Positions 5,014-37,856 are shown, counted from the first letter of the stretch. The stretch is 44,191 nt of DNA from an uncultured archaeon (GCA_964514495.1 CAZERL010000001.1:1-44191), one strand, 5' to 3'. Notes: generated by a model not told the origin, from the sequence alone. Program-made: numbers and translations.

Positions 5014-5733
5014 ATGTCAAATAATGGAAATATGATTTCAGTCGTTTTACCAACATACAATGAAAGAGAAAATATCGTCAATCTTATTACTCACATAGAG
5101 TCTGTTCTCAAAAGAAAAGGGCTGAAAGCTGAGATAGTGGTTGTTGACGATAATTCCCCAGATGGAACAGCAAGGATTGTAAGAAAGCTAAATAAAAAAT
5201 ATAGAAACATAAGAGTCTTTGTCCGCCCCAAAAAACTTGGTATAGGATCCGCACACCTTTTTGGCTATCAGAAAGCAAAAGGGTATATAGTAATTGCGAT
5301 GGATACAGACCTTTCACATGACCCAGAACAGATTGTCAACATGATTGAGAAAATTAATGAAGGCTATGACATCGTTGCCGGCTCAAGGCATATGAAAGGC
5401 TCATACTATGAGAGGAAAACGCCCGAAACAAGGAGAAAATATATTGCAAGCAAATACGGTAATATGCTGACAGCCTTCATATCTGGAGTCCCTATACACG
5501 ACTTTACTAACGGGTTCAGGGCAATAAGGAAAGATGTTGTGAAAAATGTCAAGACAGAATCTACAGGAAATTCGTTTCTCATGGAGTTCATAGTAAAGGC
5601 ACAAAACAAGGGCTACAGGGTTACTGAAATACCAGTGACTTTCAAGGACAGGAAGTTCGGCCAATCAAAGCTTCAGTTGGAAAAGGAATCTCTAAAATAT
5701 ATACTGGACCTGCTGAAGTATTCAAGAACCTAG
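5014..5733 (+). CDS. Dolichyl/polyprenyl-phosphate hexose synthase (GT2, Dpm1-like)
   Basis: 239 aa. ISVVLPTYNERENI..EIVVVDDNSPDGTA..MDTDLSHDP..AGSRH..DFTNGFRA is the classic Dpm1/polyprenol-monophosphomannose synthase layout. Confidence 0.85.
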   Translation: MSNNGNMISVVLPTYNERENIVNLITHIESVLKRKGLKAEIVVVDDNSPDGTARIVRKLNKKYRNIRVFVRPKKLGIGSAHLFGYQKAKGYIVIAMDTDLSHDPEQIVNMIEKINEGYDIVAGSRHMKGSYYERKTPETRRKYIASKYGNMLTAFISGVPIHDFTNGFRAIRKDVVKNVKTESTGNSFLMEFIVKAQNKGYRVTEIPVTFKDRKFGQSKLQLEKESLKYILDLLKYSRT

Positions 5734-11356: not shown

Positions 11357-11402
11357 ATGTTCCACAAACCTTTATGAGACTATCTTTAAATTAATACTAC
11401 GT

Positions 11403-12314: not shown

Positions 12315-12351
12315 AATATCGTTCCATTAGTTTTATTTATAAAATTGCGAA

Positions 12352-13286: not shown

Positions 13287-13290
13287 GTAT

Positions 13291-16021: not shown

Positions 16022-17548
16022 ATGAAGCTTAGGAAACTTGCATCTAATGTCGCTTATCTAACGATGGATTGGGTATCTATAACTGTATTGTCATCTTTAT
16101 TTTGGATAATTTCTGGTAAATTGTTGAGTTCTACAGAACTTGGTATAGTATCCACTGCAATTAATTTCGCCACTATACTGCAATTTTTCAGTACGCTTGG
16201 GATAGGTATAGCATTATCTAAGCTTATATCTGAATTTTCAGGAAACTCTAATGAGTATAAAATAAAAAATATTCTAAGTTCAGCAATTAAGTTGCTTCTA
16301 ATTTCAAATTTGTTACTGGTTCTTCTAGTTTTTGCATTTGTTGAGAATTTATCATCCGCGATTAAACTTACGCAGCAAACTATACTGATATCAATTGTAA
16401 TTGCTGTGTTCCTATCAATTTCAAACGTAGCCGGTTACATAATAATCGGGTTTCAAAATATGCGGAAATTAATGCTGACAAATTTGTTTTATCATCTAGC
16501 TAAAGTGTCGATTTCAGCGATTCTTGTTTTTATGGGTTTTAGTTTTCTCGGACCATTATTCGGCATAACTTTAGGGTTGTTACTTCTAATTATTCTAAGA
16601 CTAGACAGCTTCAGATTAGTTAAATTTGATTTGAAATCCCAAAATTACTATAGGGACATCCTGCAATATTCAATGCCAGCTTTCTTCGGTGGAATGGCAT
16701 ACTTAACCTTCAGCAATGCCCCATATATCACGCTTACTGTGGTGCAAGATCTATCGATTACGGGACTATTCACTCCTGCGATGCTACTGGCAACACCACT
16801 ATTTATTTTCCCATCTATCTTTGCATCCTCGCTGTTTCCTATAATTTCCAATCTAAGTGGACAAATAAAAGGAAGTAATGAAAACGCATTTTTGCTAAAT
16901 ATAGCATTTCGATATATAATTTTCCTAGCTTTACCGTTAGCAGTCTTTCTGATACTTTTTTCAGATCAAATAATTTTACTTCTCTTTAAACCAGAGTATC
17001 TGCCTGCAGCCGGACTTCTGAAAATCCTTTCTATAGGCACTTTACTTCAGGGCTTTAGTGGTATTTTCTTGAATGCTATCTATGCCTTGAAGAAACCAAA
17101 AATCCAGCAAAACATTTTAATCTCTGGGGCACTATTTTTCATCCTTCTATCTATACCATTTACGTATTATTACTCCGCTACTGGCATGAGCATAGCTTAT
17201 ATAATCTCTAACTTTATACTTTTCACTCTCAGTTATGTTTATTTAAGAAAATTAATTAGAATCAAGTTACCATATTCCGACATTTTTAAAATTTCACTGG
17301 CTGCGATTTTAATAACAGGCTTCATAGCATTAACTAAGCCAATGCTTCCAAATTTATTATCGGTCCTATTAGTTTTGCCTAGCATGGCAATTTTCCTTGT
17401 TTCTCTATTTTACATTAACTTCTATAATTCCTTGGATTTGAGATTGATAGAATTTTTATATTTGCGCGCGCCTAAATACCTCAAACTTCCACTAAAGTTA
17501 TCTTCCGAGATATTGCGAGCGAAATTAAAAAATACCTCTAGACAATAA
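16022..17548 (+). CDS. Wzx-type oligosaccharide flippase (MOP superfamily)
   Basis: 508 aa, about 14 hydrophobic helices, with the typical polysaccharide-biosynthesis-protein architecture. Confidence 0.8.
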   Translation: MKLRKLASNVAYLTMDWVSITVLSSLFWIISGKLLSSTELGIVSTAINFATILQFFSTLGIGIALSKLISEFSGNSNEYKIKNILSSAIKLLLISNLLLVLLVFAFVENLSSAIKLTQQTILISIVIAVFLSISNVAGYIIIGFQNMRKLMLTNLFYHLAKVSISAILVFMGFSFLGPLFGITLGLLLLIILRLDSFRLVKFDLKSQNYYRDILQYSMPAFFGGMAYLTFSNAPYITLTVVQDLSITGLFTPAMLLATPLFIFPSIFASSLFPIISNLSGQIKGSNENAFLLNIAFRYIIFLALPLAVFLILFSDQIILLLFKPEYLPAAGLLKILSIGTLLQGFSGIFLNAIYALKKPKIQQNILISGALFFILLSIPFTYYYSATGMSIAYIISNFILFTLSYVYLRKLIRIKLPYSDIFKISLAAILITGFIALTKPMLPNLLSVLLVLPSMAIFLVSLFYINFYNSLDLRLIEFLYLRAPKYLKLPLKLSSEILRAKLKNTSRQ

Positions 17549-18553
17549 AGGTAAAATACCAAAGATAGTTTGAATAACCATCATGAAGATTACAATTTGC
17601 CATTCTCTAAATCTTCCTAACTTCATCACGGCATGAGTTAATGAGAATATTCTATTTCCGTATTTCGATTTTATTGTGCCATCATTTCCGACTACACCCA
17701 AATCAGATGCGTATTGCCCCAACTTATGTTTGGAATAGAATTTTAAAATACCTTGTAAGATAAATGGCGTCATTACAATAAGGCCTATCTTCTCCATGTT
17801 GCCAACAACTACACCAGCAGCCACCAAAGACCCTAGCAAATAAGTCAAACTATCGCCTGGAAGAATTTTTGCAGGATACCAATTATACCTTAGAAATGCA
17901 ATCAGTGCTGCAGCAGCTATAAAAAATATAACAGAACTAAGGACATTAACGAACACAAATGCATACAAACCCAGCGATAGCATATAAATCAACCCCATTC
18001 CAGCCTCAACACCGTTATAACCACCAAGCATGTTGACCATATTAGAAGCACCTACAATGCCTATAGGCACCAGCAAAAGAGGGTACAATATCCCAAAATT
18101 GAAATCGCCTATGATAGGCAATGTTAATGTAGTCTCGCCAACACTTATAGCCATTAAAGGGACTGCAGCAGGTAAAGTTAATAGCGGCTTAACCCATCTA
18201 GGAAATCCAACACGTATGTCATAACCTTCATTAGTTCTTACTTTTTTTGATTTTACATTCAGATCATCAAAAAACCCAACAAACATGGCTATTAGTATCG
18301 ATGCAGTTACAGCTACCAGGTTTAAAATCGCCTGCCTATAAACAAAAGTCTGTATGGCTATGTAAACCAACAATCCAGCCAATACGCCTGCAGCCACTCC
18401 AATACCACCGGAGCTAGGTAGCATCGGTTTTTGTTGCTTGTTCAAATCAAGCCCCACTACTCCAGCCGCATATAAAAAGCGAATTAATTGAGGCATTATG
18501 AAAAATGTAGTGATAAATGCTACAGCCATTGATAGCAGTAAGCTAACGGCCAT
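17525..18553 (-). CDS. aglH: UDP-GlcNAc:dolichyl-phosphate GlcNAc-1-phosphate transferase (Alg7/AglH type)
   Basis: 342 aa polytopic protein. FFDDLN and NMVNMLGGYNGVEAG match the eukaryal/archaeal GPT form N-x-x-N-x-x-(A/G)-G-x-N-G-x-E-x-G. The bacterial WecA/MraY form is N-x-x-N-x-x-DG-x-DGL. Confidence 0.85.
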   Translation of the reverse strand: MAVSLLLSMAVAFITTFFIMPQLIRFLYAAGVVGLDLNKQQKPMLPSSGGIGVAAGVLAGLLVYIAIQTFVYRQAILNLVAVTASILIAMFVGFFDDLNVKSKKVRTNEGYDIRVGFPRWVKPLLTLPAAVPLMAISVGETTLTLPIIGDFNFGILYPLLLVPIGIVGASNMVNMLGGYNGVEAGMGLIYMLSLGLYAFVFVNVLSSVIFFIAAAALIAFLRYNWYPAKILPGDSLTYLLGSLVAAGVVVGNMEKIGLIVMTPFILQGILKFYSKHKLGQYASDLGVVGNDGTIKSKYGNRIFSLTHAVMKLGRFREWQIVIFMMVIQTIFGILPLLSRGIF

Positions 18554-22987: not shown

Positions 22988-23051
22988 AATTTCACATATT
23001 TAAACTAACACTATTATTTTTAAATACTAGTTTTTAACTAGGTGCATAGAT

Positions 23052-23792
23052 ATTCAATTAAAAGGTAAAATAGCCGTTATAACCGGTGGTAGCAAAGGAC
23101 TTGGAAAAGAGCTAGCTAAATTTTTTTCCGCCGAAGGTAGCACAGTTGTCATCTGTTCAAGAAGCGCGAATGACCTGAAGAGTGTTTGCAATGAAATTGT
23201 TGGTGCTGGCGGGAAGTGCGAATATTTTGTAGTTGATGTAACCAATAAAAAACAAGTCGACAAGCTTATTGATAAAGTTCTCAGTTCACATGGCAGAGTT
23301 GATGTTTTAGTCAATAATGCTGGATATGCCACCAAGTGGAAGGGCATAGAGAAAAATACTGAAGGAGAATTCGAAACATGCTTTAGAACTAACGTATATT
23401 CAATTTTCTATTTCCTTAAAAAAATAGTTCCGATAATGCGAAGGCAGAATTCAGGCTCGATAATCAACATATCATCCATGGCTGGGAAAAGAGGGATTCC
23501 AAACTTGGCAGCATATTGCGCTAGTAAATTTGCAGTGGTGGGGCTCACCCAATCTGTTGCTAAAGAGCTTAAGGATACTGATGTCCTCTGTATAAGTGTA
23601 TGCCCAGGAGGAATGTCCACAGAAATGCGGTCAAAGATATTTGGATTGGAAGATGCCAAGAAGCAACAAAGCCCACAGTATGTCGCAAATGTAATTAAAG
23701 ATGTTTTGTTAGGTAAGATAAAAGTTCCTAATGGCGGCGATATAATCATAAGGCATGGCAAAATAATGGCTATTAATCCCGCGCCAGAATAA
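23052..23792 (+). CDS. Classical SDR oxidoreductase (FabG-like), with no canonical start codon; proposed ATT start
   Basis: The frame is open from 23031 to 23792. It reads ..IQLKGKIAVITGGSKGLG (TGxxxGxG), NNAG, and SSMAG..YCASK (S-Y-K triad). There is no in-frame ATG, GTG or TTG before 23436, which lies downstream of the Rossmann and NNAG motifs. GGTG at 23041-23044 sits 7 nt before the ATT at 23052. Confidence 0.6.
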   Translation: MQLKGKIAVITGGSKGLGKELAKFFSAEGSTVVICSRSANDLKSVCNEIVGAGGKCEYFVVDVTNKKQVDKLIDKVLSSHGRVDVLVNNAGYATKWKGIEKNTEGEFETCFRTNVYSIFYFLKKIVPIMRRQNSGSIINISSMAGKRGIPNLAAYCASKFAVVGLTQSVAKELKDTDVLCISVCPGGMSTEMRSKIFGLEDAKKQQSPQYVANVIKDVLLGKIKVPNGGDIIIRHGKIMAINPAPE

Positions 23793-23835
23793 ATCTTATT
23801 TCAATATTTTTATTGTATTGCAACCAGGGATAAAG

Positions 23836-25056
23836 ATGAAATGCAAAATATGCGATAATCAGAATCTCCAAAAATTTCTTTCGTTAGGTGAAACGCCCTT
23901 GGCTAACAATTTCTTGAGAGAAGGTGATTTGCCTAAATCAGAGAAAACATTCCCTTTAGATGTTTACTTTTGTCCAAATTGCAAATTAGTACAATTGGGT
24001 TATGTAGTGCCACCAGAAATGATGTTTACAAATTACTTTTATGTGTCTTCAACTTCGAACACTTTTCAGCTACATTTTTCCAAGATGGCGGAAGAACTTA
24101 CGAATATGCTGAAGTTAGATGGCAATTCACTCGCAGTTGACATAGGAAGCAATGATGGTGTGCTTCTTAAAGGATTTCAGAAGTTTGGGGTTCGCACTGT
24201 TGGTGTAGAGCCTGCCACAAACATCGCAGAAATTGCAAAAAAGGATGGCATTGATACTATTAAAGATTTTTTTAGCGATAATGCTACAGATCAAATACTA
24301 TCTTCCGAAGGATATGCAGATGTCATCACAGCCAATAATGTTTTTGCACACACCGGAGCAATAAAGCGAATAATATACAATGTTAAAAGACTTTTAAAGG
24401 ACGATGGAATCTTTGTAATAGAAGTGGCTTACCTTCTTGATATGCTTCAAAAGATGACATTTGACATAGTTTATCATGAGCACCTTTTCTACTATTCATT
24501 AACACCACTAGACTACCTTTTCAATCAGCAGGGCATGCAAATATTTGATGTACAAAGAATTCCTACCCATGGAGGCTCTTTGAGAGTTTTTATTAAGAAA
24601 TCAGAGTCATCCAAACCCATCAAAAAGTCGGTATCCGAAATCCTTGGAAAAGAAAAGGAGATGGGAATTCATGAACTGGAAACTTATGAAAATTTTACCA
24701 ATAGCGTGTATAAAGCAAAAGAACAACTGGCAAAACTAATAATGGATCTTAAAAATCAAGGAAAAACAATCGCCGGTTATGGTGCTCCCGCGAAATCAAC
24801 GACTTTATTGAATTTTTGCGGCTTAGGTGGAGATTTCATCGAGTATATAGTTGATGAGAATGACCTAAAGCAAGGATTGTATACACCAGGCACACACATC
24901 CCAATAGTACCTCCGAGCATGCTAGACAAAAAGAGACCGGACTATATTTTGATTCTTGCGTGGAATTTCGCCGAAGAAATCTTGAATAAGACAAAGAAAT
25001 ATAAAGCTGATGGCGTAAAATTTATAATCCCTCTTCCAGAACTAATGACAGTTTGA
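23836..25056 (+). CDS. NDP-hexose C-methyltransferase (TylC3-like: Zn ribbon + SAM MTase + C-methyltransferase C-terminal domain)
   Basis: MKCKICDNQ..CPNCKLVQL (four-Cys ribbon), VDIGSNDGVLL (SAM motif I), ANNVFAH, and the long C-terminal domain typical of this family. I prefer the ATG at 23836 over the TTG at 23818. Confidence 0.8.
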   Translation: MKCKICDNQNLQKFLSLGETPLANNFLREGDLPKSEKTFPLDVYFCPNCKLVQLGYVVPPEMMFTNYFYVSSTSNTFQLHFSKMAEELTNMLKLDGNSLAVDIGSNDGVLLKGFQKFGVRTVGVEPATNIAEIAKKDGIDTIKDFFSDNATDQILSSEGYADVITANNVFAHTGAIKRIIYNVKRLLKDDGIFVIEVAYLLDMLQKMTFDIVYHEHLFYYSLTPLDYLFNQQGMQIFDVQRIPTHGGSLRVFIKKSESSKPIKKSVSEILGKEKEMGIHELETYENFTNSVYKAKEQLAKLIMDLKNQGKTIAGYGAPAKSTTLLNFCGLGGDFIEYIVDENDLKQGLYTPGTHIPIVPPSMLDKKRPDYILILAWNFAEEILNKTKKYKADGVKFIIPLPELMTV

Positions 25057-26716: not shown

Positions 26717-26773
26717 CTGTATGCAGCTATTAATGGATGTGAAAATAAGAATTACGTAAACTAAGGTGATTTA

Positions 26774-26883
26774 ATGAAGTTTATTGACTCTTTGAAAGGC
26801 ATTTTAAGCATAATAAAAGAATTATTGAGCCTCCTATGGAGGAAGAAACTTTGGTGGGACCATTTATTTATGCTTTGTTTTAG
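26774..26883 (+). pseudogene. Decayed DUF5989/SxtK-like gene: N- and C-terminal motifs in different frames, TM core deleted
   Basis: AAGGTGA Shine-Dalgarno, then ATG at 26774. The reading gives MKFIDSLKGILSIIKELLSLLWRKKLWW (frame 1). The family C-terminus GPFIYALF-stop appears at 26857-26883 in another frame. The roughly 22-codon hydrophobic segment present in the intact paralog at 6095-6283 is missing. Confidence 0.55.
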
Positions 26884-26907
26884 ATTTCTTAAATTGAACG
26901 TGATTGC

Positions 26908-27132
26908 TTGAAAGGTATATGGAAAAAATGGCTGTTTGTATCCGAAAAGATCGGAAACTTCATGTCCAGAGTAATTCTCACCTTGCTTTATTTTACAATT
27001 TTCGCGATTCCAGGCATCGCTTCTAGACTCTTCACAGATAAGCTGCAGATCAAGAAAAGAAAAACTTCATACTGGGTTGACATCAAAGATAAAGTACCCA
27101 AGGATATAGAAGAAAGCAGAAATCAAGGCTGA
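26908..27132 (+). CDS. SxtJ-like (short form) small membrane protein, partner of the carbamoyltransferase
   Basis: 74 aa from a TTG start. KKWLFVSEKIGNFMSRVILTLLYFTIFAIPGIASRLFTDKLQIKKRKTSYWVD resembles, from memory, the C-terminal half of SxtJ-family proteins (..SPIVLGLLFF..P.GLLMRL.GKDPL.L......SYW..). Confidence 0.6.
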   Translation: MKGIWKKWLFVSEKIGNFMSRVILTLLYFTIFAIPGIASRLFTDKLQIKKRKTSYWVDIKDKVPKDIEESRNQG

Positions 27133-27161
27133 ACAGCCGATAAAATTCAAAATGTGTCAAT

Positions 27162-28889
27162 ATGGTGGCAATATTAGGTATTTCATGTTACTATCATGAT
27201 GCTACCGCATCAATAATAAAGGATGGTAAAATTTTAGCAGCTGCTGCCGAGGAAAGATTCAGCAGAAAAAAGCACGATTTCGGATTTCCTCAAGCTGCAA
27301 TAAATCTTTGCTTAAGAAAAGCTGGTGTTGGTAGCAATGGCTTGGATTATGTCGTATTTCACGAAAAACCCTTCGTTAGATTCGAGAGGCTGCTAAGGAC
27401 TATACTAGAGACATACCCGAAATCATCGACAGTTTTTAGAGAGTCTATGCTGAGCTGGATGAAGGATAAGCTTTGGATTAAAAATACAATAGCACAGAAA
27501 CTTGGGTTAAAAGATGATAAAAAAATATTGTTTAGCGATCACCATCTTTCCCACGCTGCCAGCGCGTTTTTCTGCTCACCATTCAAAGAATCCGCAATAA
27601 TTACGGCCGATGCAGTAGGCGAGTGGACAACAGCAACCATCGGGTCTGGGAAAGATAACAAAATAACTTTGTTGAAAGAACTGAGATTCCCCCATTCTTT
27701 CGGGCTTTTGTACAGTGCTGTAACAGCCTTTCTTGGATTTGAGGTAAATGAGGGGGAATATAAGGTAATGGGTTTGGCGCCATTCGGCAACCCAAAGTAT
27801 AAAGATAAGATATACAAGTTAATCAACCTCTGTGGCGATGGAAGCTTTTCTCTGAATATGAAATATTTCATGTACCACCGGTCTGTTGACAAGATGTTCA
27901 GCAAGGAGTTTGAAAAATTGTTCGGCAAGCCTTGCCCACCAGAAGATAGAGATAAAGTGATTCCATATTATGCGGATATCGCAGCCAGCATACAAGAAGT
28001 TTTGGAAGAGTTGTTGATAAAAACTGCCAATTATGCATATGAACTGACTAAAATGAAAAATCTATGTTTTGCCGGTGGGGTTGCGCTAAATAGCAAAGCA
28101 AACTATAGGATACTCAATGAAACGCCATTCGAGGATATGTTTATACAACCTGCTGCAGGTGATGATGGTGGTTCTTTGGGGGCGGCCTTGTTTGCATATT
28201 ATTCTTTGTTGAATAACGAAAGGAATCCCTATCAACTCGTTTTAAAGAGCGCATATTTCGGCGAAGAATATACTGAGGAAGAAATTAAAAATTTCCTTGA
28301 AAGCAACAAAATAAAATACCAATATTTCGAAGATGAGGACGAATTTTTAAGCGAAGTAGTAAATCATTTGCTAAACCAAAAAGTTATAGGCTGGTTCCAA
28401 GGCAGGTTCGAATGGGGACCAAGGGCATTGGGCAACAGAAGTATCATAGCCGATCCCAGAAATCCTGAAATGAAGGACACAGTTAACAATAAAATTAAAT
28501 TCAGAGAGCCTTTCAGACCCTTTGCACCATCTGTACTTGCCGAAAGGGCGCATGAGTTCTTTGAATTGCCAGAAGTAAGAGACTTTTCTCCCATTAGATT
28601 CATGGTGTACGTCACGCCTGTAAAAAAAGACAAGCGGCATGTAATACCTGCAGTCACGCATATTGACGGTACTGGAAGGTTGCAGACTGTTTCAAAGGAA
28701 GACAACCCAAGATACTATAAGCTGATAGAAAAATTCGAAAATAAGACAAAAGTGCCAGTGATATTGAATACCAGTTTCAATCTAAAAGGGGAGCCTATTG
28801 TCAATAGCCCTGAGGAAGCATATAGTTCATTCATGAGAAGTGGCATGGATTTTCTAGTCTTAGAAAAATTTATTGTTGCTAAAACTTAA
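27162..28889 (+). CDS. NodU/CmcH/SxtI-family O-carbamoyltransferase
   Basis: 575 aa. ILGISCYYHDATASIIKDGKILAAAAEERFSRKKHD..FP is the canonical N-terminus. A C-terminal YrdC/Kae1-like region contains PSVL..FF. Confidence 0.9.
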   Translation: MVAILGISCYYHDATASIIKDGKILAAAAEERFSRKKHDFGFPQAAINLCLRKAGVGSNGLDYVVFHEKPFVRFERLLRTILETYPKSSTVFRESMLSWMKDKLWIKNTIAQKLGLKDDKKILFSDHHLSHAASAFFCSPFKESAIITADAVGEWTTATIGSGKDNKITLLKELRFPHSFGLLYSAVTAFLGFEVNEGEYKVMGLAPFGNPKYKDKIYKLINLCGDGSFSLNMKYFMYHRSVDKMFSKEFEKLFGKPCPPEDRDKVIPYYADIAASIQEVLEELLIKTANYAYELTKMKNLCFAGGVALNSKANYRILNETPFEDMFIQPAAGDDGGSLGAALFAYYSLLNNERNPYQLVLKSAYFGEEYTEEEIKNFLESNKIKYQYFEDEDEFLSEVVNHLLNQKVIGWFQGRFEWGPRALGNRSIIADPRNPEMKDTVNNKIKFREPFRPFAPSVLAERAHEFFELPEVRDFSPIRFMVYVTPVKKDKRHVIPAVTHIDGTGRLQTVSKEDNPRYYKLIEKFENKTKVPVILNTSFNLKGEPIVNSPEEAYSSFMRSGMDFLVLEKFIVAKT

Positions 28890-30483
28890 GCTCATAAATT
28901 ATATTACCGTCACACCCACCTTGTTGTATACACTGCTTTAGGGGTGGGCCATTTTCGTATACTTTTACAAAAGTTTCATTGTTTTCTTCAAAAAACATGA
29001 TTGTATCTATTTTATATGTTTCACTTATAGCTTCATTGCCAAGACTAAACTTTTGTATGAACAAATGAGTTATGCCGACTTCATTGATATCTTTCCTTAT
29101 AAGCTCCAAGTCTTTGCTCAAGAAAATATCAGGCGGATTGCCAACCACAATTCTTTCGCAGCTGTAAGCAGCCCTATGCACCCACACAGTAGATAGTACA
29201 ACATCCTTAGGTAGATTATTTCGAACCCATTCACACGTCTCGAAGAACGCAGGGGAGAATTGTTTTACCTGCTTCATTACTATGAGTTTAGATGACAAAT
29301 TTTGGTATGCCAAAATTATAACTATTAGGAATACTATTACTGCAATATACTTTTGGTGAGACTGTAAAAATTCATATAATCTGCCGAAATATACACCTGT
29401 AAGAATTGCAAAAATTGGTGTCCATGCCAATATGTTTCTTGCAGCGTCTTCGGCTCTTGCTGTAGTAAAATGGAAGTATGGTACAAATGTGAACAAAGCC
29501 AGTAAAAGCAATACACTTGTTACATCTCTGCGTTGCAATAGAATTACCAATCCACCAAAAATACCTAGTGTTACTAGCCATATGTTTCCGAATGCAAAAT
29601 CCAAAAAGTTGGTTATACCCATTCTATAAACACCTTCGTTAGAACCCCCGCCTTGGGTTATAGCCTGATACTGGTATGATTGTTCCCTTAATAGGGTTCC
29701 ATATTCGCAGCCAGCCCTGCCAAAAATTTTATCGGTAAATGGCAAGTAACACTCTGGCACTTTGTAGATGCCCAAATTTCTTACAAAAAAACCGCTTATT
29801 AAGACAATGAATAAAACGAATATTGTCGCGTATTTTGTTATTTGGAAATTTCTTCGTGCCAAATCATAAAACGCCGCCAATAAAATGAATATAATTAAAT
29901 TTACTGACGAGACTTCTGTTAGGAATGCGAATGCAGCAAACGCACCAGTCAGCAATAGGTATTTTTTACTTTCTGTTTTGGCGCTATACAGAAACAATAA
30001 TACAGTAAGTGCAAAATAAAGCGTTACAAGGCCTTCTGTATAGAAAGTTACTGCATATGTTACCACAGAGGGTATAGAAATGAAAACAATCGCTGCAATA
30101 AATCCAATTTTATCATCAAATATTTTCTTTACTAAGATATAGATGGACAATGCGGTCAATAGCGATATAAAGGGCAGTAGTAATTTTACTATAACTTCAT
30201 TGAAGCCAAATACAAGAAAGAAGCCAGCCTCTAACAAATGCAACATAGGTGGTTTACCGAAATTATTCCTACCGGCCTCAGTTCCCTCTATGGTTATCCA
30301 AGCTGAATAATCCTTCTCTTTTGCAATGTAACGTGCCATTCCAGTGTGGAAGGCTTCGTCGCCAAATGTTATAGGACTGGGAAGCGTTACCTGCAGTTCT
30401 AATACAAAAAATACTAATAAGATTACCAATAATGCGATAAGAGATGTATTCTTGAATTCCAGTACTATTTTCTCGTCTGCCAA
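28879..30483 (-). CDS. GT-C fold glycosyltransferase, PMT/ArnT-like (second copy)
   Basis: 534 aa polytopic protein. First-loop FGDEAFHTG, then GKPPMLHLLEAG. Cys-rich soluble C-terminal domain. Confidence 0.75.
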   Translation of the reverse strand: MADEKIVLEFKNTSLIALLVILLVFFVLELQVTLPSPITFGDEAFHTGMARYIAKEKDYSAWITIEGTEAGRNNFGKPPMLHLLEAGFFLVFGFNEVIVKLLLPFISLLTALSIYILVKKIFDDKIGFIAAIVFISIPSVVTYAVTFYTEGLVTLYFALTVLLFLYSAKTESKKYLLLTGAFAAFAFLTEVSSVNLIIFILLAAFYDLARRNFQITKYATIFVLFIVLISGFFVRNLGIYKVPECYLPFTDKIFGRAGCEYGTLLREQSYQYQAITQGGGSNEGVYRMGITNFLDFAFGNIWLVTLGIFGGLVILLQRRDVTSVLLLLALFTFVPYFHFTTARAEDAARNILAWTPIFAILTGVYFGRLYEFLQSHQKYIAVIVFLIVIILAYQNLSSKLIVMKQVKQFSPAFFETCEWVRNNLPKDVVLSTVWVHRAAYSCERIVVGNPPDIFLSKDLELIRKDINEVGITHLFIQKFSLGNEAISETYKIDTIMFFEENNETFVKVYENGPPLKQCIQQGGCDGNIIYELKF

Positions 30484-30667
30484 TCAACCACTTGAATTAA
30501 ACCTAATTACAAGACTGCAAGATTATAAGTTTATTACAAATAATAAAAAAATCTATATAACCCCTTAAATCTTTAACTGCTACAGTAAGCGCATGGAACT
30601 ATGTTCCAGTCTACATTTAATACGTTTAAAAAAGAAATTTTATTAAAGGTAGAACATTGGTGATTGA

Positions 30668-32209
30668 TTGAAAGTATTGTTGTTGAACCCACCTAACCAA
30701 TTCAAAATAAGCAAGACAAGCAGATGGCCCGAATGGACGAAAAGCGGGACTTTATATTATCCATTTTGGCTAGCTTATGCCACATCAGTTCTAATGGAAT
30801 CCAAACACAAACCACTGCTTTTGGATGCTATTGCAAAAAATCTAGACTTCCAGATGACTTTAGAAAAAATCCAGGATTTCAATCCTGATATGGTTGTTAT
30901 AGAATCCTCAACACCCAGTGTGCATAGAGATGCACAGTTTGCCGATGATGTGAAGAAGATATCTGATTCAAAAATAGTTTTCGCTGGTAGACATGTAACC
31001 GCTACAACCGAACAAACCCTGAAGATGTTCAAATCAATTGACATAGTTGCAAGAGGCGAGTATGATTACACTATTTTGGATATTGCAAATGAGCTCAACA
31101 ACGGGCAAAACCTCAAAGAAGTCGTTGGCATCTCATTTAGAAAAAACGGAAATATAATAAATACCCCGATAAGACAATTGACTCAGAATTTAGACGAAAT
31201 GCCGTTCGTATCAAAAGCATACAGGGAATTTTTGGATGTGAGAGATTACAGGTATGCATTAGCACAGCATCCCATGTTGCAGCTTTGGAGCAGTAGAGGA
31301 TGCCCAAATAGATGTACATATTGCGACTATCCTCAGGTGATGACGATGCATACATTCAGAATGAGAAGTGCAAAAAACGTCGTTGATGAAATGGAATACA
31401 TTCATAAAAACTTGCCAAATGTCAAAGAAATTTTCCTTGAAGATGACACATTTACAATTGATAGAAATCGTACGTTTGAAATTTGTAAAGAAATACAAGA
31501 GAGAAAATTAAAACTCATTTGGTCTTGTAATGTTAGAGCTAATCTTGATTATGATATTTTGAAGGCAATGAAGGAAGCTGGTTGTCGTATTTTGATTGTG
31601 GGATACGAAAGTGGCAATCAACAAGTTTTAAACAACATAAAGAAAGGCATTGCGTTAAAACAGGCAGAGGAATTCACCAAACACGCACAAAAACTCGGCT
31701 TAAGGATATTCGGTTGTTTCATGATAGGTTTACCAGGCGATACAAAAGGAAGCATAAATGATACATTGCAGTTTGCAAAAAAGATGCATCCTGATATGGT
31801 ATTTTTCCAACAGGGTGTACCGTTCCCAGGAACAGAATTCTACGAATGGGCTAAGTATATGGGGTATCTGAAGACAGAGGACTACAGCAAGTGGTTTGAC
31901 GAAACAGGTAGACTGGACTGTTTAGTGAATCAGCCAGGCTTGAGTGGAGAAGAGGTTAAAAAAATGAGAGAAAACCTTATGCTGCGATATTACTTGGATC
32001 CAAGGCACATATTCTATACCTTGAGAAGGAATCTCCATCCTTTCGAATTTGTAAGGGTTGTACATTATGCTAAAGATTACCTTGCCTTCCTTATGTTAAA
32101 GAAGCTTAAATCAATGCAAAAGAAAAGCGTGAAAGACGATACGCCTCTAATTCACCACAAGCATGAAGAGAAAGGACCATTTGAAGAAAGACTACTCCAA
32201 TCGACTTAA
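30668..32209 (+). CDS. B12-binding-domain radical SAM enzyme (class B)
   Basis: 513 aa from a TTG start. N-terminal MKVLLLNPP..DMVVIESSTPS..IVFAGRHVT (cobalamin-binding Rossmann-like domain), then SSRGCPNRCTYCDYP (CxxxCxxC). Confidence 0.85.
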   Translation: MKVLLLNPPNQFKISKTSRWPEWTKSGTLYYPFWLAYATSVLMESKHKPLLLDAIAKNLDFQMTLEKIQDFNPDMVVIESSTPSVHRDAQFADDVKKISDSKIVFAGRHVTATTEQTLKMFKSIDIVARGEYDYTILDIANELNNGQNLKEVVGISFRKNGNIINTPIRQLTQNLDEMPFVSKAYREFLDVRDYRYALAQHPMLQLWSSRGCPNRCTYCDYPQVMTMHTFRMRSAKNVVDEMEYIHKNLPNVKEIFLEDDTFTIDRNRTFEICKEIQERKLKLIWSCNVRANLDYDILKAMKEAGCRILIVGYESGNQQVLNNIKKGIALKQAEEFTKHAQKLGLRIFGCFMIGLPGDTKGSINDTLQFAKKMHPDMVFFQQGVPFPGTEFYEWAKYMGYLKTEDYSKWFDETGRLDCLVNQPGLSGEEVKKMRENLMLRYYLDPRHIFYTLRRNLHPFEFVRVVHYAKDYLAFLMLKKLKSMQKKSVKDDTPLIHHKHEEKGPFEERLLQST

Positions 32210-32236
32210 ATTAGTTACTAAGTCTCATTAATTTAG

Positions 32237-33208
32237 GTGAGTAAAATTAAGAGACCACCATCTGTAACAATCCATGTGACAGTCAAGAACGCCGAGGATA
32301 CAATCAAGAAATGTGTAGAGTCTTTGTTGTCTTTGGATTACCCTAACAAACAAATCTATATTACAGAAGCCTATTCGACTGATAGAACATATGATATTCT
32401 AAAACAATATGGAAAACGCATAAAACTTGAAAGGGTGAGAGGTACTGCACCAAAAGCACACAACCATGTTTTCAAAAAAATCAAAACCGATTTCATTGCA
32501 ATGACTGATGCAGATTGTGTTGTCGACAAAAATTGGTTGAAGGATTTGATTAATGCAATAAACTCTGAAGACATTATTGCGTCTGGCGGATTCTGCAAGA
32601 CACCAAGTGATGTTAACAATTTACAGAGGCTTATAGGCATAGAGCTTGAGGATAGATTCAATAGAATGCCTAAGTATGTCAATAGGCTCCCTACTATGAA
32701 TTTTTGCGTTAGAACTGACATCGCCAAGAAAGTGAGGATGAACGAATCTTTAGCTGTTACATTTGAAGCGGATTGGGGAAACCTTTTGTCTAAATTTGGT
32801 AAAATCGCTTATGTGCCAGAAGCCGTAGTATCTCACTACCATCGGTCCACATGGAAAAGCTTTTTCAAGCAACAATTCAATTACGGAAAATACGTGGTGA
32901 AAACTCCTCATGTTTATGTCAAAGCTGGCAAGTTCGGTGATTATCTATCAAAACCAATAATGGGTCTGCAGTTGGTTGCATTCAATTTGTTCCTATTGTC
33001 ATTGTTCGCATCCCTAGTCTCAATGCCACTGATTATAATTTCTTTTAGTTTATTCATCGTGCTTCTAATCATCTATATTTCGGATATACTTAAATTTTCA
33101 AGAAAACCATTAGACGTGTTTAGCTATCTAATGTTATTTTTCGTTAGAACTTTTGCATGGACTTTGGGTTTTGTTACTGGCATATCAGAGATAATCCGAG
33201 GCAAATAG
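32237..33208 (+). CDS. Membrane-anchored GT2 glycosyltransferase (cellulose-synthase-like subgroup)
   Basis: 323 aa from a GTG start. TIHVTVKNAEDTI, MTDADCVV (DxD), degenerate QxxRW region KQQFNYG, and 2-3 C-terminal TM helices. Confidence 0.8.
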   Translation: MSKIKRPPSVTIHVTVKNAEDTIKKCVESLLSLDYPNKQIYITEAYSTDRTYDILKQYGKRIKLERVRGTAPKAHNHVFKKIKTDFIAMTDADCVVDKNWLKDLINAINSEDIIASGGFCKTPSDVNNLQRLIGIELEDRFNRMPKYVNRLPTMNFCVRTDIAKKVRMNESLAVTFEADWGNLLSKFGKIAYVPEAVVSHYHRSTWKSFFKQQFNYGKYVVKTPHVYVKAGKFGDYLSKPIMGLQLVAFNLFLLSLFASLVSMPLIIISFSLFIVLLIIYISDILKFSRKPLDVFSYLMLFFVRTFAWTLGFVTGISEIIRGK

Positions 33209-34249
33209 ATGAAAATTTTAGTCGCTCATGAAAAATTTCCGCCTGAAGTAGCTGGCGGTGGCGAAACAATAGTCTACAATCTAGTAAAAGGCTTGATTAC
33301 GCGCGGACATCATGTGACTGTAATCACAACAGGAAATCCAAAGATAAAGCAATTCGATGGGATAAAAACCATAAGAATCCCAATCAACCGCTACCTGATG
33401 AACCTTTCGTATCCAATAATTCTCAAGCATGCAAAGGACTACGATTTAATTCAAACAACATCTGGAAACATGTGTTTTCCATCATGGAAGGCTGCAAAAA
33501 CATTGAACAAGCCAATAGTTTGCTTAATTCTTCATCTGTTATCCCACCATTGGAAAACAATTCGAGGTGATTTTGTCGGCACAATCTTCCTCCAGATGGA
33601 AAAATTATTTTTAGGAAGAAATTATGATTCGATTGTTGTGATGAATGACAATGCAAAAAATCTTTTAAGGAAAATAAATAAAGCAAGTAAAGTTTATGAA
33701 ATACCTTCCGGTTTCGACTTCAAGTCTCCAAAACCAGTTAAAAAAACCAAATCAATTTTATTCGTCGGAAATCTTTCCATGAATAAGACCATGATTAAAT
33801 TAAAAGGTCTGACAGAATTTGTTGTGACCGCAAAATACTTTCCCGATTACGAGTTCTATGTAGTAGGCAAGGGAGATTATCTCAGCGAGATTAAGAGGCA
33901 TTCACCTTCAAATGTAATTTTTACAGGACCTTTATTCGGAGATAAATTGAGAAACCTATTTTCCAAATCAGAAATTTTCTGCAATTTATCATTGAGCGAA
34001 GGCTTCGGCCTCACAACTGCAGAAGCAATGGCATCAGGCTGTGCGGTAATCTCAACCATCGATATAGGACAATTGGGAATGTTTGTCAATCCTAAAGATG
34101 TCCACGGTTTGAGAAGCGCACTACATTACCTACTCACACACCCAACAGAAATGAAGCAAATGGTCAGCCGCAACAAAAAAATAGCCCAGAAATACACATG
34201 GGATAGATTTGTCGAAGGATTTGTAAAAATTTACAAGCATTTAGTTTAA
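33209..34249 (+). CDS. GT4 (group 1) glycosyltransferase
   Basis: 346 aa. MKILVAHEKFPPEVAGGGE and LSLSEGFGLTTAEAMASGCAVI (E-x7-E). The ATG directly follows the upstream stop. Confidence 0.85.
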   Translation: MKILVAHEKFPPEVAGGGETIVYNLVKGLITRGHHVTVITTGNPKIKQFDGIKTIRIPINRYLMNLSYPIILKHAKDYDLIQTTSGNMCFPSWKAAKTLNKPIVCLILHLLSHHWKTIRGDFVGTIFLQMEKLFLGRNYDSIVVMNDNAKNLLRKINKASKVYEIPSGFDFKSPKPVKKTKSILFVGNLSMNKTMIKLKGLTEFVVTAKYFPDYEFYVVGKGDYLSEIKRHSPSNVIFTGPLFGDKLRNLFSKSEIFCNLSLSEGFGLTTAEAMASGCAVISTIDIGQLGMFVNPKDVHGLRSALHYLLTHPTEMKQMVSRNKKIAQKYTWDRFVEGFVKIYKHLV

Positions 34250-35562
34250 ACTTTCGTTCCAGTACCGATTCCAATAACTGGCACATGCAACTTTGGCAAA
34301 ATATTTTTACCGTCCACAACAAACTTCAATCCAGGAACCTTCCTATAGTCAAAATTCTTGAATTGCGAATGGTCACAGCCTATAATTAAAACGTCGCATC
34401 CATCTTTCTCAGGATCGCATGGCATAAATCCCATTTTTGCCAACTCTTCATCCGCGAATAGCGGCTCGTACACATAAGTCTTAATACCCTCACGCTTCAG
34501 AAGATTGTGCAAAACTATTGCAGGACTATCCCTCAAATCCCTTACATCACCCTTGTACGCCAATCCGAATATAACAACTTTCGAATTATGAAGTTTGACA
34601 TTGAATTCTTCACCCGCCTTTTTCAAAAGATTGTATGTATAATACGGCATACTTTCATTCGACCACATCGCATTCCATAAAGTAGTAAACTGAACACCAG
34701 CTTCTTCACCGGCAGATATAAGATAATAGGGGTCTTTAGGGATGCAACTACCACCCACACCTATGCCCGGATAATGTTTTGAAAATCCAATTGGCTTTGT
34801 TGCAGCAGCATTTACAACTTCTACAACATTTATCCCAGCAGCATCACAGAACTTCGCAAACTCGTTAATGAACCCGATATTTAATGCTCTATAAGAATTT
34901 TCCAGCATCTTTGTAGCTTCTGCAGCTTCTAAGGATGAAACAGGATGAACCTTCTCAATAAAATTAGAATAGAAAGCCACACCAACCCCCAAACTATCTT
35001 TAGTTATCCCACCAACAACTTTAGGAATTTTATTTATAGTGTAAGTAGTATTTCCAGGGTCTATCCTTTCAGGCGATGCAACAAGATAAAAATCATCGCC
35101 AGCTTTCATTCCAGACTCTTCTTCTATTATAGGCACAATCTCCTTTCTTGTCATTCCAGGCGCAACAGTACTTTCATTTACCACCAAACTCCCTCTCTTC
35201 AAGTCCTTCCCAATCACCCTAGCTATATCCTTGACTGCAGTTAGATTTGGCCTTCTGTCTGGAAACATCGGGGTCTGCACACAAATCATCGTAACATCAG
35301 AATTTTTTTCATATTCGTTAGAAAATGTCATCTTCCCTTCCGATGCCAACCTCTTTAGAGCCGTAGAGTCGATTTCTTTCAAGTCTTCCAAAGGATTTTC
35401 CCCTTTAGATAAAGCGCTAGTCTTCCATTCGTTTCTATCCGTCCCATGCACCTTAAATCCAGCTTTCCCTATCTCTACAGCCAATGGTATGCCAACATAG
35501 CCCATCCCAAAGACATTTACAACAGCTGTTTTGTTAGTTATCTTCTCCTTAAGGCTCTCCAT
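34246..35562 (-). CDS. Nucleotide-sugar 6-dehydrogenase (UDP-glucose/GDP-mannose dehydrogenase family; Ugd or WecC type)
   Basis: 438 aa. VFGMGYVGIPLA (GxGxxG) and GVGGSCIPKDP (catalytic Cys motif GGxCxxKD). Confidence 0.85.
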   Translation of the reverse strand: MESLKEKITNKTAVVNVFGMGYVGIPLAVEIGKAGFKVHGTDRNEWKTSALSKGENPLEDLKEIDSTALKRLASEGKMTFSNEYEKNSDVTMICVQTPMFPDRRPNLTAVKDIARVIGKDLKRGSLVVNESTVAPGMTRKEIVPIIEEESGMKAGDDFYLVASPERIDPGNTTYTINKIPKVVGGITKDSLGVGVAFYSNFIEKVHPVSSLEAAEATKMLENSYRALNIGFINEFAKFCDAAGINVVEVVNAAATKPIGFSKHYPGIGVGGSCIPKDPYYLISAGEEAGVQFTTLWNAMWSNESMPYYTYNLLKKAGEEFNVKLHNSKVVIFGLAYKGDVRDLRDSPAIVLHNLLKREGIKTYVYEPLFADEELAKMGFMPCDPEKDGCDVLIIGCDHSQFKNFDYRKVPGLKFVVDGKNILPKLHVPVIGIGTGTKV

Positions 35563-35636
35563 TCTAAATAGCTATTACTATAGATTTATTACCTTTACGT
35601 TTCGATTATCTGTTAAGAACTATAAATGGTTTGAAC

Positions 35637-37856
35637 ATGACATTAATCAAAAAAATATTCAACAATTGGCTTTTTCCATTAGCAATTCTTGCTTTAATAA
35701 TTTTCATAGGTGTATCTGTCCGTTTAACTACAATAAATGCACCTACAGTGCTAGATTATGATCCGTGGTGGTATTACAGACATGCGACAGAAATAATAAA
35801 CAACAACATGCAACCACCAAAATGGGATTTACTTAGTTACTATCCACCTGGAAGACCGTTTGAACCATTTTTAGGTTGGATTTATACCATGATTCTATTC
35901 TTCAAGATCGCTCAAATATTCGTTAGTGATATAGCGTTTGTAGTCATAGCCAAATGGTCACCATTAATAATGGTTGCTCTCGGTGGCATTTCAGCATTCT
36001 TTTTGGGAAAATTAATCACCAACAATATAGGCGGTTTATTTACAGCATTGTTTGCCATACTGCCGCCAACTTTTATCGGAGTCTCTATGGCGGGCTACTC
36101 AGATAACGATCCTGTTGTAGTGTTCTATACGTTCCTGTCAATGTTCTCTATAATGCTCGCAATGAAAAAGCGATCAGTGCCATTTTACGTCTTGGCGATA
36201 CTAACGAATTTAATTTTTGCATATAATTGGAATGGTGGCTGGTTTGTATCGCTTCTGTTTTTAATCTTTTTGCCAGCCTTAGTTATTTTTAGAATTGTCG
36301 AAGAAACTATTCACAACAGAAATCTGAAAGTAAATTTAAGCAATATACTATTTGAAATAAAGCATCTGGCCGTACCATTGCTGATTGTTATTGTCATCGC
36401 CAATTTAATCGGTGTAATAACCAACCTTGGTAATGTCTTCATATCTTTTCTGATAAGCCTGGGTTTCGTAAATCCTGGCCAAGGCCTATTAGTTAACATT
36501 TCAGTCGCGGAATTGCAGAGAATAAACGTTCTCACTACAGAAGGATTTCTTACTATTGCAAGTAGGATCGGAGTGACACCTACTTTATTAGCACTTATAG
36601 GGTTACCTTTATTGGTAATCTACAAACTATATAGAAGGATTAAAATAGAGTATCATGAAATTTTCCTGTTTCTCTGGCTTGCCGCCACTTTTTACATGAT
36701 ATTAAACGGCACCAGATTTTCTTTGCAATTCTCCTCGGCCGTTGCTGCCTCAGCTGGCTATTTGATAGCCCAATTTTCCAAATACAAAAGAACATCATTG
36801 GTGATACTTACCTCTATTTTAATTTATATGACATCCATCAACAACACATTTTTACTGCCCACATTTTTAGTAACTATGATAACAATTTTTTCATTGTTTA
36901 AACGGCATACAGAAACCCCAGACCTGCATCTGGCAACTTTATTCGGGGTTGTACTCATCTTATCACTCTTTTTCATTTCTGAGGCAATTCAAGTTGGCCA
37001 AGGCTCTACTGGCTTAGAAATAAGTGGAAATTGGCTAAACGGTTTGGAATGGCTCAAGCAAAATGCCGATAAAGATGCATTAATTGCAACTTGGTGGGAT
37101 CCTGGTCATATTATAGCTGGATATACTGGATTGAAAGTTCATGCGGATGGGGCGCATTGTGCTCCTGGCGAGTGCATACCCTACAACCATAACATAAGAA
37201 TCCAAGATATGGGCAGAACATTTTCGATAAGCAATGAAGAAGAAGCTGTGAAAATTTTAAAGAAATATATGCAACTGACGCCAGAACAGTGCAGCGAAGC
37301 TAAGAAGCAATTTGCAGATATAATGCCTCAAGATGCGTGCAAACCTGTCAGTGAGATGTATGTCATCGCCAGCAGCGATTTAATCGGCAAATATTATTGG
37401 CTAAATTATTTCGGTACAGGGGCTGGAAGAAATTTTATAGAATGCCGATTATCACAGGAGTTGACACAACAGCAGAACACCCCATCGTATGGCTGTGCTA
37501 CAGGCTCTCCCATGACAGTAACAATGGCTCAAAAGGATGATCAGGTATTTGCTGTAATAAATATGCCTTCTCTGGGTTTAAGAAATGCAATTAGCAGAGA
37601 TTTGATTTACTTTAATAATAATCAAGAAGTTAGAGTTCGAACGAATATAACAAATGCTATAGATGGGCTAATGCTTATAGAACCAGGATTCGGCATATCC
37701 ATTTTTATGGAACAAGCTGTTCGCGACTCCATTTACACAAACATGTATTTCTTTAATGGAAATGGTATATCTGAATTCAACATACCAAAACTTAATAAGT
37801 TCAAGCTGGTTTATAACAACCCAGAATTAAAGATATTCAAAGTTGACTTCTCATAA
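35637..37856 (+). CDS. aglB: Archaeal oligosaccharyltransferase AglB (STT3 family)
   Basis: About 739 aa. First-loop LDYDPWWYYRH (DxD), EL5 motif NISVAELQ (TIxE/SVSE type) and ATWWDPGH (WWDxG). 13-TM-like N-terminal domain plus a soluble C-terminal domain. A TTG at 35631 is an alternative start. Confidence 0.9.
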   Translation: MTLIKKIFNNWLFPLAILALIIFIGVSVRLTTINAPTVLDYDPWWYYRHATEIINNNMQPPKWDLLSYYPPGRPFEPFLGWIYTMILFFKIAQIFVSDIAFVVIAKWSPLIMVALGGISAFFLGKLITNNIGGLFTALFAILPPTFIGVSMAGYSDNDPVVVFYTFLSMFSIMLAMKKRSVPFYVLAILTNLIFAYNWNGGWFVSLLFLIFLPALVIFRIVEETIHNRNLKVNLSNILFEIKHLAVPLLIVIVIANLIGVITNLGNVFISFLISLGFVNPGQGLLVNISVAELQRINVLTTEGFLTIASRIGVTPTLLALIGLPLLVIYKLYRRIKIEYHEIFLFLWLAATFYMILNGTRFSLQFSSAVAASAGYLIAQFSKYKRTSLVILTSILIYMTSINNTFLLPTFLVTMITIFSLFKRHTETPDLHLATLFGVVLILSLFFISEAIQVGQGSTGLEISGNWLNGLEWLKQNADKDALIATWWDPGHIIAGYTGLKVHADGAHCAPGECIPYNHNIRIQDMGRTFSISNEEEAVKILKKYMQLTPEQCSEAKKQFADIMPQDACKPVSEMYVIASSDLIGKYYWLNYFGTGAGRNFIECRLSQELTQQQNTPSYGCATGSPMTVTMAQKDDQVFAVINMPSLGLRNAISRDLIYFNNNQEVRVRTNITNAIDGLMLIEPGFGISIFMEQAVRDSIYTNMYFFNGNGISEFNIPKLNKFKLVYNNPELKIFKVDFS

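Follow-up and report, generated by a model that had tools for sequence, protein, structure and literature searches.

The 44,191-nucleotide stretch of DNA from an uncultured archaeon analyzed in this study (GCA_964514495.1, CAZERL010000001.1:1-44191; referred to here as the window) raises the question of what a radical S-adenosylmethionine (SAM) enzyme of class B is doing at the head of a block of glycosyltransferase genes. Three open reading frames (ORFs) on the plus strand are concerned: the radical SAM gene itself (30668..32209, 513 amino acids, TTG start), a membrane glycosyltransferase of family GT2 (32237..33208, 323 amino acids, GTG start) and a GT4 of the GT-B fold (33209..34249, 346 amino acids, ATG start). 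The sequence-only reading, an earlier description of this DNA, had presented these ORFs as a co-directional trio with spacers of 184 nucleotides (nt) before the radical SAM gene, 27 nt between it and the GT2 gene and 0 nt between the GT2 and GT4 genes, and both coordinates and spacers were reproduced. Divergent from the trio lies a gene for a GT-C glycosyltransferase of the PMT_2 family (28879..30483, minus strand, 534 amino acids; PF13231, E 4e-16), and downstream lies the gene for the oligosaccharyltransferase AglB (35631..37856, plus strand; PF02516 STT3, E 3.7e-27). It was concluded that the HpnJ-like class-B radical SAM enzyme very probably works with the adjacent glycosyltransferases. 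The source is an archaeon of the small, symbiotic DPANN type. The complete reading proposed here, in which the region 28879-34249 and AglB form a conserved sugar-editing module within a DPANN N-glycosylation island, with ring contraction as the favored chemistry, is put forward tentatively, at slightly less than an even chance.

The family to which the radical SAM protein belongs was established with Pfam domain searches, NCBIfam models, and AlphaFold models compared by Foldseek with solved structures. The protein contained a B12-binding domain at residues 25-136 (PF02310, E 9.5e-11, 42 bits against a cutoff of 32.1) and a radical SAM domain at residues 209-370 (PF04055, E 4e-24, 86 bits). The cysteines of its motif C212-P-N-R-C216-T-Y-C219 were invariant in 40 homologs. 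Together with the class-B fold of the AlphaFold model (predicted local distance difference test (pLDDT) 86.6), these domains bear out the earlier description of a class-B enzyme with an N-terminal cobalamin-binding domain and the sequence CPNRCTYC, the use of cobalamin being predicted. HpnJ is a B12-domain radical SAM enzyme that acts in the synthesis of bacteriohopanetetrol cyclitol ether with the GT2 HpnI and the deacetylase HpnK, and a ring contraction of glucosamine to the cyclitol has been proposed for it. The HpnJ model (TIGR03471) matched the window protein at 446 bits (E 1.6e-133), with residues 1-477 aligned to model positions 1-469 of 472, and the next-best model, BchE, reached 162 bits. 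Scores for methylase models were 136 bits for PhpK (cutoff 600), 91 for HpnR (cutoff 650), 86 for KedN5 (cutoff 700) and 40 for the Trp methyltransferase (cutoff 500). The AprD4 model gave 96 bits, and TIGR04190 (the Ta0216 family), which might be the family of the calditol synthase Cds, gave 86 bits.

The positive control for TIGR03471, the annotated HpnJ from an hpnI-hpnJ-hpnK cluster on the megaplasmid of Mycetohabitans rhizoxinica, scored 844 bits, and the DPANN relatives of the window protein scored 438-464 bits. Against the control, the window protein was 36% identical over 467 collinear amino acids (E 1e-103); it has both domains in common with HpnJ, and the collinearity extends from the first residue to about residue 470. 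Across the 87 HpnJ-like sequences compared, 58 positions were at least 95% conserved. Its TTG start is supported by the alignment of residue 1 with residue 1 of true HpnJ and by a Shine-Dalgarno-like GGTGA 4-8 nt upstream. By these sequence comparisons, the window enzyme is classed as an HpnJ-like class-B enzyme of a sister clade and not as an HpnJ equivalog. The sequence-only reading had allowed for either methylation or rearrangement of a sugar; rearrangement gains weight, because HpnJ is the nearest characterized relative, whereas the methylases then named are far more distant (446 bits for HpnJ versus 91 bits for HpnR).

A genome scan returned 589 relatives of the radical SAM protein, of which the best 80 were examined. 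Those at 57-63% identity came from Aenigmatarchaeota and other uncultured archaea, and those at 45-50% from Methanobrevibacter, Candidatus Methanovirga, Christensenellaceae, Coriobacteriales and Margulisiibacteriota. At 36-42% identity stood Clostridia, including [Clostridium] symbiosum ATCC 14940, and Dehalococcoidales, followed by many Acidobacteriota and Binatia; the genes of the last two groups were regarded as true HpnJ loci because their best-scoring neighbor was HpnI, often accompanied by HpnK. In a rough neighbor-joining tree, midpoint-rooted and without bootstrap, the window enzyme fell within a DPANN clade (56-66% identity) that is sister to a gut-associated clade (47-50%), and both of these join a clade of Clostridia (37-40%) and Lawsonia. 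Two homologs, P0018 (837 amino acids) and P0034 (859 amino acids), were 61-63% identical to the window enzyme over their matching halves and carried, between the B12 and radical SAM parts, a LAGLIDADG insert (PF14528) that looks like an intein. Inteins usually reside in highly conserved, important proteins.

Gene neighborhoods were compared for 12 independent loci of DPANN, with identities of 51-66% (the window, L001, L004/L016, L006, L008, L009, L014, L015, L017, L094, L095 and L096). The sequence-only reading had staked its proposal on conservation of the radical SAM-GT2-GT4 trio in other genomes, and the trio does recur in DPANN relatives down to 51% identity. A GT2 ortholog directly follows the radical SAM gene in seven DPANN loci, lies within two genes of it in L094 and within 7 kb of it in L004, L009 and L014. 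GT4 orthologs (259-343 bits) adjoin the radical SAM or the GT2 gene in L001, L004, L006, L009, L014, L017, L094 and L095; no GT4 ortholog is present in L008 or L096, and the L015 contig ends just past the radical SAM gene. The most constant partner of the radical SAM gene in DPANN is the PMT_2 GT-C gene, orthologs of which (222-482 bits) divergently adjoin it in 10 of the 11 DPANN loci with upstream DNA. Furthermore, an STT3 gene stands within about 5 kb of the radical SAM gene in 9 of the 12 loci. Conservation therefore supports the earlier view of the trio as one functional block, but that block was drawn too narrowly, since PMT_2 is the most constant partner and AglB usually follows. The GT2 and GT4 genes change position, whereas PMT_2 and the radical SAM gene keep together, and this speaks for selection acting on the latter pair. 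The conservation of the module is directly supported, as are the family placements of its proteins and the island context. The PMT_2 protein itself carries the motif FGDEAFH in its first loop, which we take to resemble the 'DE' motif of PMT proteins, and a search of PDB sequences with it gave no match.

Several further observations were made in the DPANN loci. In L094, on a contig labeled Nanoarchaeota, a DUF362 protein with a 4Fe-4S ferredoxin domain (11314-12336) is encoded in the same operon as the radical SAM, GT2 and GT4 proteins, and it could be the electron donor of the radical SAM enzyme. In L001, the GT-C gene lies on the same strand as DegT, epimerase and PIG-L genes. L009 (GCA_039804145.1, JBDRZW010000011.1), although labeled as a candidate division WOR-3 bacterium, contains STT3 and Alg13/Alg14-like genes as well as the DPANN module; the contig is probably archaeal and was assigned to the wrong bin. 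Moreover, DPANN islands encode second B12-domain paralogs, which again score highest with the HpnJ model, though only at 223-289 bits, and SPASM-type radical SAM proteins; further radical SAM genes were located at 11423-12880 in L006, 1332-2765 in L008, 14090-15446 in L094, 5304-6203 in L004 and 3139-4269 in L095. Glycan pathways of DPANN may make use of radical chemistry quite generally.

The GT2 gene is the partner through which the comparison with HpnJ can be carried further, as HpnJ is also paired with a membrane GT2, which puts a sugar on a lipid-linked acceptor. The window GT2 (PF00535, PF13641) contained the motifs TDADC (DxD) and FEADW and, at about residue 212, QQFNYG where processive GT2 enzymes have QxxRW. 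Its AlphaFold model (pLDDT 94) showed three C-terminal hydrophobic helices (240-258, 264-284 and 291-320). Domains and model helices agree with the earlier description of a GT2 with C-terminal transmembrane helices and a degenerate QxxRW region, and the third gene likewise proved to encode a GT4, as had been stated (PF13439 with PF00534 and PF13692). The top Foldseek matches of the GT2 were Chlorella virus hyaluronan synthase (TMq 0.64-0.70), the membrane GT2 mannosyltransferase PcManGT of Pyrobaculum calidifontis (6yv7, 0.60) and BcsA. The model suggests a minimal fold of the cellulose/hyaluronan-synthase type, comprising a GT-A domain, interface helices and three transmembrane helices. The predicted fold is thus like that of PcManGT and of the hyaluronan and cellulose synthase cores, whereas sequence identity to them is only 10-16%, QxxRW is replaced by QQFNYG and processivity is not indicated. 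PcManGT is reportedly dolichyl-phosphate-dependent and encoded in an N-glycan cluster. About 115 DPANN cluster representatives were at least 37% identical to the GT2, and 20 of them were on contigs matching in size those of radical SAM relatives.

Another role considered for this GT2 was that of a dolichyl-phosphate-sugar synthase feeding the GT-C enzyme. The window resembles Arn-, AglD- and AglS-type systems, in which a polyprenyl-phosphate GT2, modification on the carrier and transfer by a GT-C enzyme are combined, in that a PMT_2 GT-C gene stands beside the radical SAM gene and a GT2 like dolichyl-phosphate-mannose synthase (DPMS) or ArnC is encoded in the island. In contrast to those systems, the GT2 paired with the radical SAM enzyme is not of the DPMS, ArnC or GtrB type: none of these three matched it in a search of PDB sequences at an E threshold of 0.01, and none was among its top 50 Foldseek matches. 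The Arn-like candidate was rejected on sequence and fold, and the role is probably filled by the separate DPMS-like GT2 (5014..5733, plus strand, 239 amino acids), which matches the Dol-P-Man synthase of Pyrococcus furiosus (5mlz) at E 9.4e-40 and also matches ArnC and GtrB. This enzyme likely makes the dolichyl-phosphate-sugar donor for both of the PMT_2 GT-C enzymes that the island encodes. Moreover, a ring-contracted sugar phosphate could not be a glycosyl donor, so Arn-type logic would fit only the rival proposals of methylation or epimerization.

The association of a GT2 with an HpnJ-type radical SAM enzyme extends beyond DPANN. In 15 of the 19 non-hopanoid loci, a GT2 gene was adjacent to and co-directional with the radical SAM gene, and 30 bacterial loci of the HpnJ clade have an adjacent HpnI. 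The GT2 proteins encoded upstream of the radical SAM gene in L031, L032, L025, L028 and L027 matched the family profile of the window GT2 at 74-194 bits, and the order GT2, radical SAM, GT4 was found in five loci (L025, L026, L032, L036 and L039). The bacterial contexts are clusters for polyprenol-linked polysaccharides with Bac_transf, Wzx and GT4 genes: the order in C. symbiosum is Bac_transf, GT2, radical SAM; a Wzx flippase is encoded in L021; and a DUF2206 membrane protein is encoded in L031 and L032. On plasmid 1 of Lawsonia intracellularis, an obligate intracellular pathogen of pigs, an HpnJ-like radical SAM gene (L010, NC_008012.1, 27 kb; 16055-17518; 41% identical) is clustered with GT2 genes, genes for five class I methyltransferases, a second radical SAM gene and heptose-pathway-like genes (SIS, HAD-IIIA and GHMP kinase). 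The recurrence of this pairing beyond DPANN implies that it is ancient and that hpnI-hpnJ is one specialized instance of it. To present the block as a candidate for unprecedented chemistry, as the sequence-only reading did, was therefore too strong, since a GT2 with an HpnJ-type radical SAM enzyme follows the logic of hpnI-hpnJ and is also widespread in bacterial polysaccharide clusters. It was further observed that genes for LPG_synthase_TM proteins and for type I phosphodiesterases (PF01663) turn up repeatedly in the vicinity of HpnJ-like radical SAM genes in unrelated lineages, examples being L096 445-2840 (DPANN), L011 8273-9334 (beside hpnK, Mycetohabitans) and L036 13139-14578 (Clostridia); these genes may be further pathway components.

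What, then, would the enzyme act on? Unlike HpnJ, the window enzyme has an archaeal host with no hopanoid genes nearby, and its partners are GT-C, GT4 and AglB instead of HpnI and HpnK. The window is an archaeal N-glycosylation (Agl) island, as AglB, an initiating N-acetylglucosamine (GlcNAc)-1-phosphate transferase, glycosyltransferases and a flippase occur together. It encodes an Alg14-like and Alg13-like pair (12352-13286; PF08660, PF04101), a GT4 (13276-14448), a second PMT_2 protein (14420-15982, minus strand; PF13231), a Wzx-type flippase (16022-17548; PF01943) and an AglH-like GlcNAc-1-phosphate transferase (17525-18553, minus strand; PF00953). It also holds many GT2 and GT4 genes and genes for nucleotide-sugar enzymes. 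A classical nucleoside diphosphate (NDP)-hexose C-methyltransferase (Methyltransf_13/14, 23818-25056) and a NodU-like carbamoyltransferase (27162-28889) are encoded as well, so that conventional enzymes probably already provide the glycan of the island with branches or methyl groups and with carbamoyl groups.

In this context, the sugar of a lipid-linked glycan is the probable substrate of the radical SAM enzyme. The sequence-only reading had named, as one possibility, a modified glycolipid head group rather than a protein glycan; the context tends to favor a dolichol-linked glycan of the N-glycosylation island over such a head group. According to the head-group explanation, the GT2 glycosylates a free hydroxyl of archaeol or of a glycerol dialkyl glycerol tetraether (GDGT), a lipid possibly scavenged from a host, the radical SAM enzyme turns the attached sugar into a cyclitol ether resembling calditol, and a second sugar is added by the GT4, giving a glycolipid resistant to acid and glycosidases. 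In its favor, HpnJ and Cds, both genetically characterized precedents, act on sugars bound to membrane lipids (PMC9092360, PMC13459092), GT2 orthologs give Pfam matches to GT21 (the ceramide glucosyltransferase or HpnI type), and an LPG_synthase_TM gene occurs beside hpnK in a hopanoid cluster and near the module in L096. The module nevertheless lies within an N-glycosylation island, with AglB nearby in three quarters of the DPANN loci and AglH, Alg13/14 and a flippase encoded in the window, and the bacterial relatives occur in clusters for undecaprenyl-phosphate-linked polysaccharides with Bac_transf and Wzx. Moreover, the GT2 is not an HpnI ortholog, and no Sulfolobales locus was present among the best 80 of the 589 relatives. 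These data make the head-group explanation quite improbable.

For a lipid-linked glycan as substrate, the following route may be proposed. On the cytoplasmic face of the membrane, the membrane GT2 would attach a hexose or an N-acetylhexosamine to an acceptor carried on a lipid. The likeliest acceptor is a dolichyl-(pyro)phosphate oligosaccharide in which the core made by AglH and Alg13/14 is already in place. The radical SAM enzyme would then cleave SAM at the [4Fe-4S] cluster held by CPNRCTYC to give a 5'-deoxyadenosyl radical, which would take a hydrogen from the ring of the sugar added by the GT2; what has been proposed for HpnJ and Cds suggests, by analogy, that C5 is the site. The pyranose would rearrange, and the favored product is a C1-C5-bonded cyclopentitol that is ether-linked to the aglycone and resistant to hydrolysis. 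The GT4 would extend this product, and the glycan would be flipped and delivered by AglB; in addition or instead, the paired PMT_2 GT-C enzyme may decorate the glycan outside the cell with dolichyl-phosphate-sugar donors. From these comparisons we infer which acceptor is used, in what order the steps follow, where the hydrogen is abstracted and that the ring contracts. For another radical SAM enzyme of archaea, the calditol synthase Cds of Sulfolobus acidocaldarius (Saci_1489), contraction of a hexose bound to lipid, giving a cyclopentitol ether, has been proposed (PMC13459092, PMC9092360), and it is likened to the window enzyme by its described chemistry only; the context in the window is one of N-glycosylation and not of GDGT lipid genes. 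Genetic evidence supports ring contraction on lipid-attached sugars by both HpnJ and Cds (PMC13459092, PMC9092360). Drawn from this analogy, ring contraction is the leading possibility for the chemistry of the window enzyme, held at well below an even chance.

Several observations weigh against a ring-contracting module and were considered together. The score of 446 bits lies below the curated equivalog cutoff of TIGR03471 (577.6 bits). Fixed differences at 18 positions separated the DPANN and gut clades from true HpnJ, and the HpnI-linked clade of true HpnJ stands on the opposite side of the tree with a few basal lineages. The identity to true HpnJ (35-41%) exceeds that to other class-B paralogs of the same loci (25-35%) by a modest margin. 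No homologs of HpnI or HpnK were found in the window or in any DPANN locus, no deacetylase of the HpnK or PIG-L type is conserved with the module, and the candidate identification of the GT2 as an HpnI ortholog was rejected (BLASTP E 0.29). In addition, loci were selected by the RGCP..C motif in the genome scan, so that the conservation statistics are biased, and the DPANN synteny may partly reflect shared ancestry rather than function, because conservation extends to the neighboring histone, RPA and RadA genes. Among solved structures, that of the sugar diol-dehydratase AprD4 is the nearest. To our knowledge, Cds has never been reconstituted in vitro. HpnJ has not been reconstituted in vitro either, its function resting on genetics (PMC9092360, PMC13459092), and in a published similarity network it clusters with the C-methylases Fom3 and MoeK5 (PMC9204698).

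The main rival is that the radical SAM enzyme is a cobalamin-dependent C-methyltransferase placing a methyl branch on an unactivated carbon of the lipid-linked sugar, so that the archaeal glycan would contain a C-methyl-branched sugar. Methylation is the canonical class-B activity and that of most characterized class-B enzymes, and the grouping of HpnJ with Fom3 and MoeK5 holds at a stringent threshold (PMC9204698). The window enzyme shares the class-B fold with MoeK5, Fom3 and GenK, with which it was compared by description, and MoeK5 is proposed to act in just this way on the lipid-linked sugar of moenomycin. Its model also resembles TsrM, MgmA, CysS and TokK, the fixed differences from true HpnJ and the score below the HpnJ cutoff are compatible with another activity, and the island is rich in methylation genes. 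Against this, the methylase models score far lower (PhpK 136, HpnR 91 and KedN5 86 bits, versus 446 for HpnJ), a classical C-methyltransferase for NDP-hexoses is already encoded in the island, and the conserved pairing with a GT2 mirrors hpnI-hpnJ. C-methylation is accordingly regarded as somewhat unlikely.

The structural comparison also bears on a third explanation, that the enzyme carries out other radical chemistry on a sugar with the carbon skeleton kept, such as epimerization at C5 or elsewhere, AprD4-like 1,2-diol dehydration or deoxygenation, or oxidation of the sugar that the GT2 adds. The nearest solved structures were AprD4, TsrM, MgmA, OxsB, CysS and TokK (Foldseek E 1e-17 to 4e-26, TMq 0.60-0.71), and no HpnJ structure was present among the solved structures. 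AprD4, a B12-domain radical SAM enzyme that dehydrates an aminoglycoside sugar, ranked first (TMq 0.69-0.71), and from general knowledge of radical SAM enzymes the abstraction of a hydrogen from a sugar ring can yield several outcomes. AprD4 has a B12 domain, yet reportedly does not use cobalamin. However, the AprD4 model gave 96 bits versus 446 for HpnJ, and the gene context offers no pointer to reactions of this kind, which makes such chemistry very unlikely.

The DNA around the ring-contraction candidate was also inspected for its gene boundaries and signals. The 184 nt between the PMT_2 and radical SAM genes (30484..30667), read directly, are AT-rich and presumably carry the putative promoters of both divergent genes. 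Contrary to the earlier statement that no intergenic region of the island is larger, the gaps at 22988-23435 and 26717-27161 each span about 445 nt; neither contains a called gene, their ORFs are at most 97 amino acids long, and an Rfam scan gave no match in either. Rfam and tRNA scans of the window returned as the sole match the 3' part of a tRNA at 1-70, cut by the window start (RF00005, 54 bits). Scans for sigma-70 promoters and terminators gave results at chance level; they are bacterial in design and uninformative for an archaeon. Gene callers placed the start of the GT2 gene 39 nt later (310 amino acids), and the start at 32237 is favored by conservation of the N-terminus among GT2 orthologs. 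The ATG of the GT4 gene abuts the stop codon of the GT2 gene, which suggests translational coupling. Convergent with the trio lies a gene for an NDP-sugar dehydrogenase (34246..35562, minus strand; TIGR03026, 366 bits, above cutoff), closest to the dehydrogenase type acting on UDP-N-acetylmannosamine or UDP-GlcNAc; no such gene was found at this position in the other DPANN loci, and it was seen only in the lineage of the window.

Archaeal N-glycans are chemically very diverse. In the literature searched, the steps of their synthesis are all ascribed to nucleotide-sugar enzymes, glycosyltransferases and ordinary methyl or acyl transferases, and a radical SAM step was not found for N-glycosylation in archaea or DPANN. 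Likewise, the literature searched yielded nothing on HpnJ homologs from archaea or glycan clusters, on B12-dependent radical SAM enzymes in glycan clusters, or on a carbasugar of the ring-contracted, ether-linked kind in a protein-linked glycan. The logic of a GT2 combined with an HpnJ-type enzyme is thus known, and what is new is its recruitment to an AglB island with a GT-C partner. A broader proposal starts from DPANN and extends to those gut methanogens, Clostridia and further anaerobes in which the sister clades occur: their HpnJ-like radical SAM enzymes would contract a pyranose within a dolichol- or undecaprenol-linked oligosaccharide, so that a carbocyclic, ether-linked and glycosidase-proof pseudo-sugar would enter N-linked or surface glycans. 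This proposal is doubtful at present.

In conclusion, this conserved set of genes around a relative of HpnJ suggests that a sugar of archaeal surface glycans is edited by radical chemistry, in a step so far undescribed. The family connects the head-group chemistry of hopanoids with a wider, unrecognized group of enzymes in bacterial polysaccharide clusters, including that of the cultured [Clostridium] symbiosum ATCC 14940, and its clade supplies many small, soluble-looking orthologs with a defined partner GT2 with which ring contraction could be tested. If true, a conserved radical SAM step in an AglB island would add new chemistry to protein glycosylation, and it would explain part of the 'unknown sugar' problem in the surface biology of DPANN archaea, in which contact with the host depends on the envelope.

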